This document shows, one piece after another, positions 7,095-7,217 of a stretch of 64,000 nt of DNA. How positions within the stretch are numbered: position 1 is the stretch's first letter; each line of letters begins with the position of its first letter. The DNA comes from Escherichia coli. GTDB lineage: Bacteria; Pseudomonadota; Gammaproteobacteria; Enterobacterales; Enterobacteriaceae. The DNA lies in the NCBI RefSeq assembly GCF_002854065.1, contig NZ_CP024147.1; one strand, 5' to 3'. Below the pieces are notes generated by a model. It made no database searches and was not told the DNA's origin. It worked only from the letters and a program-made list of their open reading frames with translations. The translations under genes and the position numbers were made by a program.

Positions 7095-7217
7095 CATCCC
7101 CCTTAGCCCGGAAAAATAAGAAAAGTGCTCATGAGTTTTGAGCACTTCGTTCCGGTTCAGTATGAACGTCCTCCGTTATTATGCCATCACAATGTAAACC
7201 TAAAGGTTGACAAAAAG

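Follow-up and report, generated by a model that had tools for sequence, protein, structure and literature searches.

Unidirectional Rho-independent terminators of Escherichia coli are intergenic stem-loops followed on one strand by a U-rich tract, in which the stem is conserved and the loop is free to vary. A hairpin with the same features is present in the 64,000-nucleotide stretch of E. coli contig NZ_CP024147.1 (assembly GCF_002854065.1) analysed here, hereafter the window, as a perfect inverted repeat at 7123-7147 that lies between agaI and a HigBA-like toxin-antitoxin (TA) gene pair, inside an accessory cassette that separates agaI from the convergent gene rsmI. On the minus strand this hairpin is followed directly by a T-run, and we propose, with a probability of about 0.4, that it is a strand-asymmetric boundary element of the minus strand intrinsic-terminator type at the left edge of the cassette, a function that we infer from its layout. 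The likeness, read from sequence alone, is incomplete, since the hairpin is richer in A and U than such terminators (a modest four G-C pairs of 10 in the minus strand stem), the loop has 7 nt, and the window allele has no gene directly upstream on the strand that would be terminated.

Bidirectional terminators offer a second comparison, because the hairpin stands in a convergent setting (aga genes rightward, rsmI leftward) and replaces the shared agaI/rsmI spacer hairpin of strains in which the site is empty; unlike them, however, it carries a T-run on one side only, with an A-run upstream and none downstream on the plus strand. As with operators of the HigA, GraA and MqsA type, a palindrome is located upstream of a toxin-first HigBA-like operon, and the published HigA and GraA operators are compact promoter-region palindromes, TTAAC GTTAA and TAACGTTA (PMC6987408, PMC6393540), whereas conservation of the palindrome at 7123-7147 does not follow that of the antitoxin, and its position is outside the candidate core promoters. 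It also resembles repetitive extragenic palindromes (REP) and bacterial interspersed mosaic elements (BIME) in being an extragenic palindrome after the 3' end of a gene, but it is single-copy: the 25-mer pattern with up to three mismatches matched one site in the window (0.01 expected), and matches in E. coli genomes were confined to this locus. We know of no sequence resemblance between this palindrome and REP.

Structure and conservation of the inverted repeat

The agaI gene occupies 6327-7094 and ends with the stop codon TAA at 7092-7094, and the repeat begins 29 nt after it, at 7123. The initial annotation gave the sequence, the coordinates and this distance correctly, and it was also right in placing the repeat upstream of the toxin gene; its description of an 8-bp stem with a 9-nt loop held as to the perfection of the repeat but not as to its size, since A7131 also pairs with T7139, which gives a perfect stem of 9 bp and a loop of 7 nt. 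Accordingly, the repeat consists of the left arm AAGTGCTCA (7123-7131), the loop TGAGTTT (7132-7138) and the right arm TGAGCACTT (7139-7147); these parts, like the conserved block, second palindrome, cassette and right-edge hairpin described below, are assigned to no strand.

Across the window, 14 perfect inverted repeats had stems of 9 bp or longer and loops of 3-12 nt, against 2.8 +/- 1.4 in 30 first-order Markov simulations of it. About one-fifth of the window's repeats of this class are thus due to chance, and one somewhere in 64 kb is unremarkable; the count expected by chance within the 123-bp agaI-toxin intergenic stretch is only about 0.005. Folding energies were -23.6 kcal/mol for the plus strand (7095-7200; z = -3.1 against shuffles) and -20.4 kcal/mol for the minus strand (7160-7100; z = -4.0). 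An outer stem, CCGGAA 7108-7113 with TTCCGG 7150-7155, pairs in the window haplotype only and was rejected as part of the element, being disrupted in the second E. coli haplotype (TTACGG). A search of 6900-8100 with the covariance models of Rfam 15 returned as its sole match a chance hit to snoR35 (E = 0.74), well under the gathering score.

Relatives of the toxin were compared in Pseudocitrobacter, Klebsiella, two Yersinia species and a dozen metagenomic contigs, and most of them were located at the same agaI-rsmI site. Five lineages keep both arms, namely the window, the second E. coli haplotype (L145/L143), L013/14, L011 and L012. Across these, 16 of the 18 arm columns are invariant, compared with one of seven in the loop (Fisher p = 0.001) and two of 26 in the adjacent spacer (p = 5e-8), values that are indicative only because the lineages are related. 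The left arm is invariant in all five, as are seven of the nine columns of the right arm, which reads TGAGCGCTC in L012 alone, and the loop is different in each lineage (TGTCTTT, ACAATTT, TTAATAA and CTCATTA besides that of the window). Such conservation of the arms amid a changing loop and spacer argues for purifying selection.

The conservation extends beyond the stem. The length from AGAAAAG to TTCCGG is constant, at 37 nt, in every agaI/rsmI-type cassette; these cassettes show little or no variation in the block AAAAT(T)CAGAAAAG, and a conserved C-TTCC(G/T)G block stands just right of the hairpin, at 7148-7155. A second group (L004, L008 and L136, then L135 and L141) retains the AAGTGC core of the left arm, the A-block and CTTCC(G/T)G; its right arm differs, and the sequence folds no better than shuffles (z from +0.9 to -2.3). 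In the Yersinia and Klebsiella cassettes the palindrome element is absent.

Strand asymmetry and the candidate terminator

The A-rich tract of the plus strand at 7112-7122 is, on the minus strand, a T-run (TTCTTATTTTT) placed right after the stem. On that strand a 10-pair stem (one G.U pair counted) with its 7-nt loop is followed by the tail TCTTATTTTT and is terminator-like by scan, and the whole terminator-like unit recognised by scan and fold, GAAGTGCTCA-AAACTCA-TGAGCACTTT plus the T-run, spans 7112-7148 of the minus strand. The same minus strand call recurs in every hairpin-keeping lineage (L143, L011, L013 and L012); the stem has 13 pairs in L011, 12 in L013 and only six in L012, where it still abuts the T-run. 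Conversely, no T-run follows the palindrome on the plus strand of the window (tail CGTTCCGGTTCAG, also given as CGUUCCGGUUCAG) or of any other lineage (tail CUUCCUUCCGG), and no plus strand terminator was called in the window or in the same four relatives.

In the proposed mechanism, a minus strand RNA would fold into a stem of 9-10 pairs, GAAGUGCUCA with UGAGCACUUU, directly followed by the U-rich tract UCUUAUUUUU, which is conserved in all cassettes, and a leftward RNA polymerase would be released before entering agaI and the aga operon in the antisense direction. We infer from this layout both that termination occurs and which transcripts would be stopped: with the A-run before the palindrome and the T-run after it on the minus strand, the hairpin would stop leftward transcription and not read-through from agaI. 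The statement of the initial annotation that no T-run follows the hairpin thus applies to the plus strand but not to the minus strand. Its suggestion of an insulating hairpin comes close to our preferred reading as regards insulation, whereas neither membership of the aga operon nor the stopping of agaI read-through could be retained; the hairpin belongs to the accessory cassette, because empty-site strains have an unrelated 49-bp spacer in its place. At sites that have lost the ancestral agaI/rsmI spacer hairpin, the candidate boundary terminator would keep the aga operon from being transcribed in the antisense direction.

In the window, the only plausible leftward transcription would be read-through from rsmI across the cassette. 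The nearest minus strand gene is rsmI, about 800 bp off, with a U-less hairpin between; this GC-rich right-edge hairpin, GGCCCC-N14-GGGGCC (7909-7934), separates the stop codon of the antitoxin gene from that of the convergent rsmI and has no T-run on either strand, which makes rsmI read-through plausible. A different situation is found in an allele carried by up to 64 E. coli genomes, in which a minus strand LysR-family gene and a metallo-beta-lactamase (MBL)-fold hydrolase gene replace the TA genes between the same leader (7095-7216, 91-92% identity, arms intact) and the same 3' flank. There a minus strand gene lies about 280 bp upstream of the site, which is the sole terminator-like one between the LysR gene and agaI, so that the hairpin would be the terminator of the LysR gene. 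Furthermore, L004 and L136, which lack the hairpin, have another terminator-like hairpin between agaI and the cassette, and hairpin-bearing lineages have no further terminator-like structure there; L008 is an exception to this complementary distribution.

Several observations weigh against a minus strand terminator. A stem low in G+C, with a 7-nt loop, would allow only modest termination. Since the terminator scan is a permissive one, with 40 calls over 20 kb where 25 were expected, the weight of the call comes from its recurrence, the conserved T-run and the intergenic position. Neither a minus strand gene nor a conserved minus strand promoter was found within about 800 bp rightward. The only arm changes, those of L012, are uncompensated and would fit a sequence-specific site equally well, and since the A-block and CTTCC(G/T)G persist at fixed spacing without a significant hairpin, some other constraint must act on them. 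In addition, the lower folding energy of the minus strand is a composition effect, and z is insignificant in hairpin-less lineages: in nine of 10 lineages, G.U pairing of CCGGAAGG with CUUUUCUG makes the minus strand the more stable one, and shuffles of this G+U-rich strand also fold better, for which reason the asymmetry in folding energy was discarded as evidence for a minus strand RNA. A small antisense RNA from a conserved minus strand promoter was likewise rejected, as the only candidate, ATGGCA-17-CATACT (8/12), is not conserved.

A second palindrome and the candidate promoters

Beside the toxin start stands another palindrome, TGTAAACC-TAAA-GGTTGACA (7193-7212), with a conserved 7-4-7 layout. 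As GT(A/C)AACC-N4-GGTT(G/T)AC it recurs at this position in every agaI/rsmI-type cassette and in those of Yersinia, and is thereby conserved in E. coli, Pseudocitrobacter, the metagenomic relatives and Yersinia. It is also present upstream of homologous TA operons whose upstream sequence is unrelated, as GTCAACC-AATG-GGTTGAC in Klebsiella (L005) and as GTCAACC-ACCA-GGTTGAC in L138-140, with its right half overlapping a TTGACT -35-like hexamer; the 7-4-7 palindrome travels with the antitoxin in three unrelated upstream contexts. The recognition helix of the antitoxin is invariant, so its DNA target should be common to the relatives, and the palindrome at 7193-7212 is likely the antitoxin operator, a role that it fits better than the repeat at 7123-7147. 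For autoregulation of the cassette, 7193-7212 would therefore be the relevant palindrome. Its core, AACC-N4-GGTT, presumably resembles the ACCT-N-AGGT palindrome of MqsA. A degenerate pattern of the operator (GTAAACCNANARGTTKACA) gave chance matches only in metagenomes, with no toxin or antitoxin encoded among the matches listed.

Two candidate promoters were considered. One has a plus strand -10 hexamer, TATTAT at 7177-7182, of which TAnnnT is invariant (alignment columns T123, A124 and T128); it has no recognisable -35, although in L012 the scan paired it as CTGCCA-17-TATTAT (9/12). This promoter would put the operator at about +4 to +24. The other comprises TTGACA at 7207-7212, the only consensus -35, which falls within the 7-4-7 palindrome, a 17-bp spacer and CAGACT at 7230-7235 (9/12 in a lenient scan), and would put the operator over the -35. 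From the right arm of the repeat at 7123-7147 it is 29 bp to the nearer of the two predicted -10 hexamers, more to the other, and 59 bp to the predicted -35, TTGACA.

Alternative explanations

Read on the plus strand, the repeat would form a U-less hairpin 29 nt behind agaI that might at most pause RNA polymerase or protect the 3' end of the aga mRNA, and would in part keep aga read-through from reaching the cassette promoter; this role is compatible with a minus strand terminator, and as the principal explanation we hold it to be unlikely. In every lineage that bears it, the hairpin follows the agaI stop by 22-29 nt with nothing structured between, the plus strand fold is significant (z = -3.1), and the A-to-G change of L012 preserves a U.G pair on the plus strand only, but in no lineage is there a plus strand U-run or terminator call, the conserved run is on the wrong side for plus strand termination, and the hairpin came with the cassette and not with aga. 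Somewhat more doubtful is a sequence-specific site for some dimeric DNA-binding protein, not the antitoxin in its main binding mode but, for example, a host regulator that acts upstream of a promoter with a weak -35. The arm sequence identical across lineages, the free 7-bp centre and the fixed spacing would suit such a site, as would the lack of covariation, the decay of one half-site in L012, and an upstream candidate promoter without a recognisable -35, whose implied transcription start lies about 54 bp downstream of the palindrome centre. On the other hand, no known regulator motif was recognised, no systematic search having been made, and to our knowledge, judged by eye, CRP, LexA, TyrR, sigma-54, IHF and integron attC sites fit the palindrome in neither spacing nor sequence; the left arm is kept where the right arm is absent, so that arm conservation may follow from the constraint on the A-block, and sister cassettes with the same promoter region manage without the palindrome. 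We give a similarly low probability to the absence of any current function, the repeat being then either a quasi-palindrome that template switching has made perfect or a remainder of the element with which the cassette arrived. Its restriction to some lineages, the mere four to five right-arm substitutions that separate it from a non-palindromic form, and the decay and reshuffling of the cassette (toxins frameshifted or interrupted, cargo replaced) agree with this, whereas the arms have stayed invariant while the loops and adjacent spacer are nearly saturated with changes.

The remaining explanations appear far less probable than a minus strand terminator. The initial annotation had raised the possibility of an operator for the helix-turn-helix (HTH) protein, and the palindrome does lie near a type II TA operon; antitoxins of the HigA type bind palindromes in their own promoter regions (PMC6987408, PMC6393540). 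However, the palindrome is missing or degenerate in at least seven related lineages (L004, L008, L136, L135, L141, Yersinia and Klebsiella) in which the recognition helix is nearly identical, so that the two are not conserved together; it is a different palindrome, GT(A/C)AACC-N4-GGTT(G/T)AC, that accompanies the antitoxin; neither half-site nor spacing is common to both (9-7-9 against 7-4-7), and 7123-7147 lies upstream of both candidate core promoters. We thus consider this operator role very improbable. Use of the palindrome by a site-specific recombinase, as a core site that marks where a mobile cassette begins, would accord with the 9-7-9 layout, the variable centre and the position about 28 bp from the left cassette boundary, as well as with insertion of the cassette into the rsmI 3' end with duplication (a remnant persists in L004, L136 and L135) and with an integrase beside the homologous TA pair in L138-140. 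Yet there is no second copy at the right edge, where the GGCCCC/GGGGCC hairpin is unrelated, or elsewhere in the window; 7095-7945 contains no recombinase open reading frame (ORF); the swap junctions fall at the toxin ATG and inside the 3' end of the antitoxin gene and not at the palindrome, which is absent from the integrase-linked L138 and from Yersinia, and a recombinase site is accordingly hardly to be expected. Finally, the 37-nt module as a whole (A-block, palindrome and CTTCC(G/T)G) could be a sequence-specific protein-recognition or recombination module at the left flank of an exchangeable cassette slot, a reading that we regard as improbable; if true, it would explain why unrelated cargos (the HigBA-like pair, or LysR plus the MBL-fold hydrolase) occur between the same leader and 3' flank.

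Toxin, antitoxin and the toxin start codon

The toxin gene (7218-7577, plus strand) encodes a Gp49/HigB-like protein (Pfam Gp49, E = 1e-20) with a distant match to HigB1 structures, and the antitoxin gene (7601-7903, plus strand) an XRE/HTH_3 HigA-like protein (Pfam HTH_3, 4.7e-16; HigA structure 6af3, E = 1.3e-8). The HTH of the latter, including the recognition helix (...GV(T/S)RQA(V/I)SKFEKG...), shows essentially no variation between E. coli, Yersinia and L138.

The RefSeq annotation made with the Prokaryotic Genome Annotation Pipeline (PGAP) starts the toxin at ATG 7131-7133, part of which lies in the hairpin loop, giving 148 aa. This start is probably wrong, is unsupported by the comparative data, and the extension that it adds is closed by stop codons in L013 and L004. 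From ATG 7218 the toxin has 119 aa, and this is the likely start, with ATG 7266 as an alternative. The frame from ATG 7218 is kept in the window and in seven of 12 other loci (L145, L012, L004, L008, L136, L141 and L006) and is broken in L013, L014, L011 and L007, in which ATG 7266 or its equivalent may be used. The NxKRxKNxP segment after ATG 7218 is coding, because it shows synonymous differences between E. coli and Yersinia. The toxin fold is preceded by a basic N-terminal tail similar to the N-terminus of GraT, which is disordered (PMC6393540). Translation of a leader peptide or other upstream ORF (uORF) from GTG 7125 or ATG 7131 was rejected, as stops and frames vary by lineage and Shine-Dalgarno spacing is lacking; the apparent conservation of the uORF residues LP was set aside too, since it follows from the conserved DNA block.

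Other variation was noted around the toxin start. In the stretch equivalent to window positions 7218-7232, the A-run after ATGGT has 7 nt in L013 (about 976-990) and 5 nt in L014 (about 670-684), six being in frame; with either length ATG 7218 loses the frame and TTGACA stands 18 or 16 bp from CAGACT, and slippage, assembly error or toxin decay may account for them. The L136 toxin has an internal stop. Between the window and L145, nine codons differ in the probably untranslated extension at 7131-7217, several in a conservative-looking manner (AGT to TCT, Ser/Ser; V/I; Y/F; E/D), most likely a coincidence, as other species close this ORF with stop codons. Across the toxin start region runs an imperfect direct repeat, ACAAAAAGATGGTGAAAAATC at 7210-7230 and ACAAAAAACGTGATAAAAATC at 7237-7257, with 71% identity and 27-nt spacing.

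The cassette and the agaI-rsmI locus

The full accessory cassette (7095-7945, 851 bp) replaces the 49-bp agaI-rsmI spacer of empty-site strains and is carried by 12 of 5,426 complete E. coli genomes. It comprises the hairpin, the Gp49/HigB-like toxin gene, the XRE-HTH HigA-like antitoxin gene and the second hairpin at 7909-7934; it was searched for in plasmids and phages and not found there, and the hairpin pattern was likewise not found in viral contigs. At least four E. coli alleles occur between agaI and rsmI: the 49-bp spacer, yraHIJK (the allele of K-12), the HigBA-like cassette, and LysR plus the MBL-fold hydrolase. The junctions of the swap between the last two are AAAAAG (7212-7217, at the toxin ATG) and CTAAAAAG (about 7884-7891, within the antitoxin 3' end). 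The locus is a compact example of cargo replacement between fixed flanks. The wider importance of the element is small.

The right-edge hairpin is kept, with altered flanking pairs or extensions, in L004 (TTGGCCCC..GGGGCCAA), L011 (CAGGCCCC..GGGGCCTG) and L012, and is lacking in L013. To the left of the cassette, L004, L136 and L135 carry a remnant, about 55 nt long, of the 3' end of rsmI, which implies that the cassette was inserted into this end of the gene with a duplication; in L004 (1927-2010) the remnant retains its own minus strand terminator, and in L008 it has been lost by deletion between GC(C/G)GCAAC repeats. Both flanks of the Yersinia cassettes (L006 and L007) carry a duplicated segment of about 50 nt with a canonical terminator (TGATGATTAAAC.TAAAAACCAGCCTTC.GGCTGGTTTTTTT), which looks like a target duplication. 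In L138-L140, a phage-type integrase gene (3391-4380, minus strand) directly follows the homologous antitoxin gene, a hint that TA pairs of this family move along with integrative elements, at their borders. With regard to the agaI 3' end (7040-7094), the product has 255 aa here and in empty-site strains, against 251 aa with another C-terminal tail in K-12 (compared as L003 1300-1332), which indicates that the variable region starts inside agaI.
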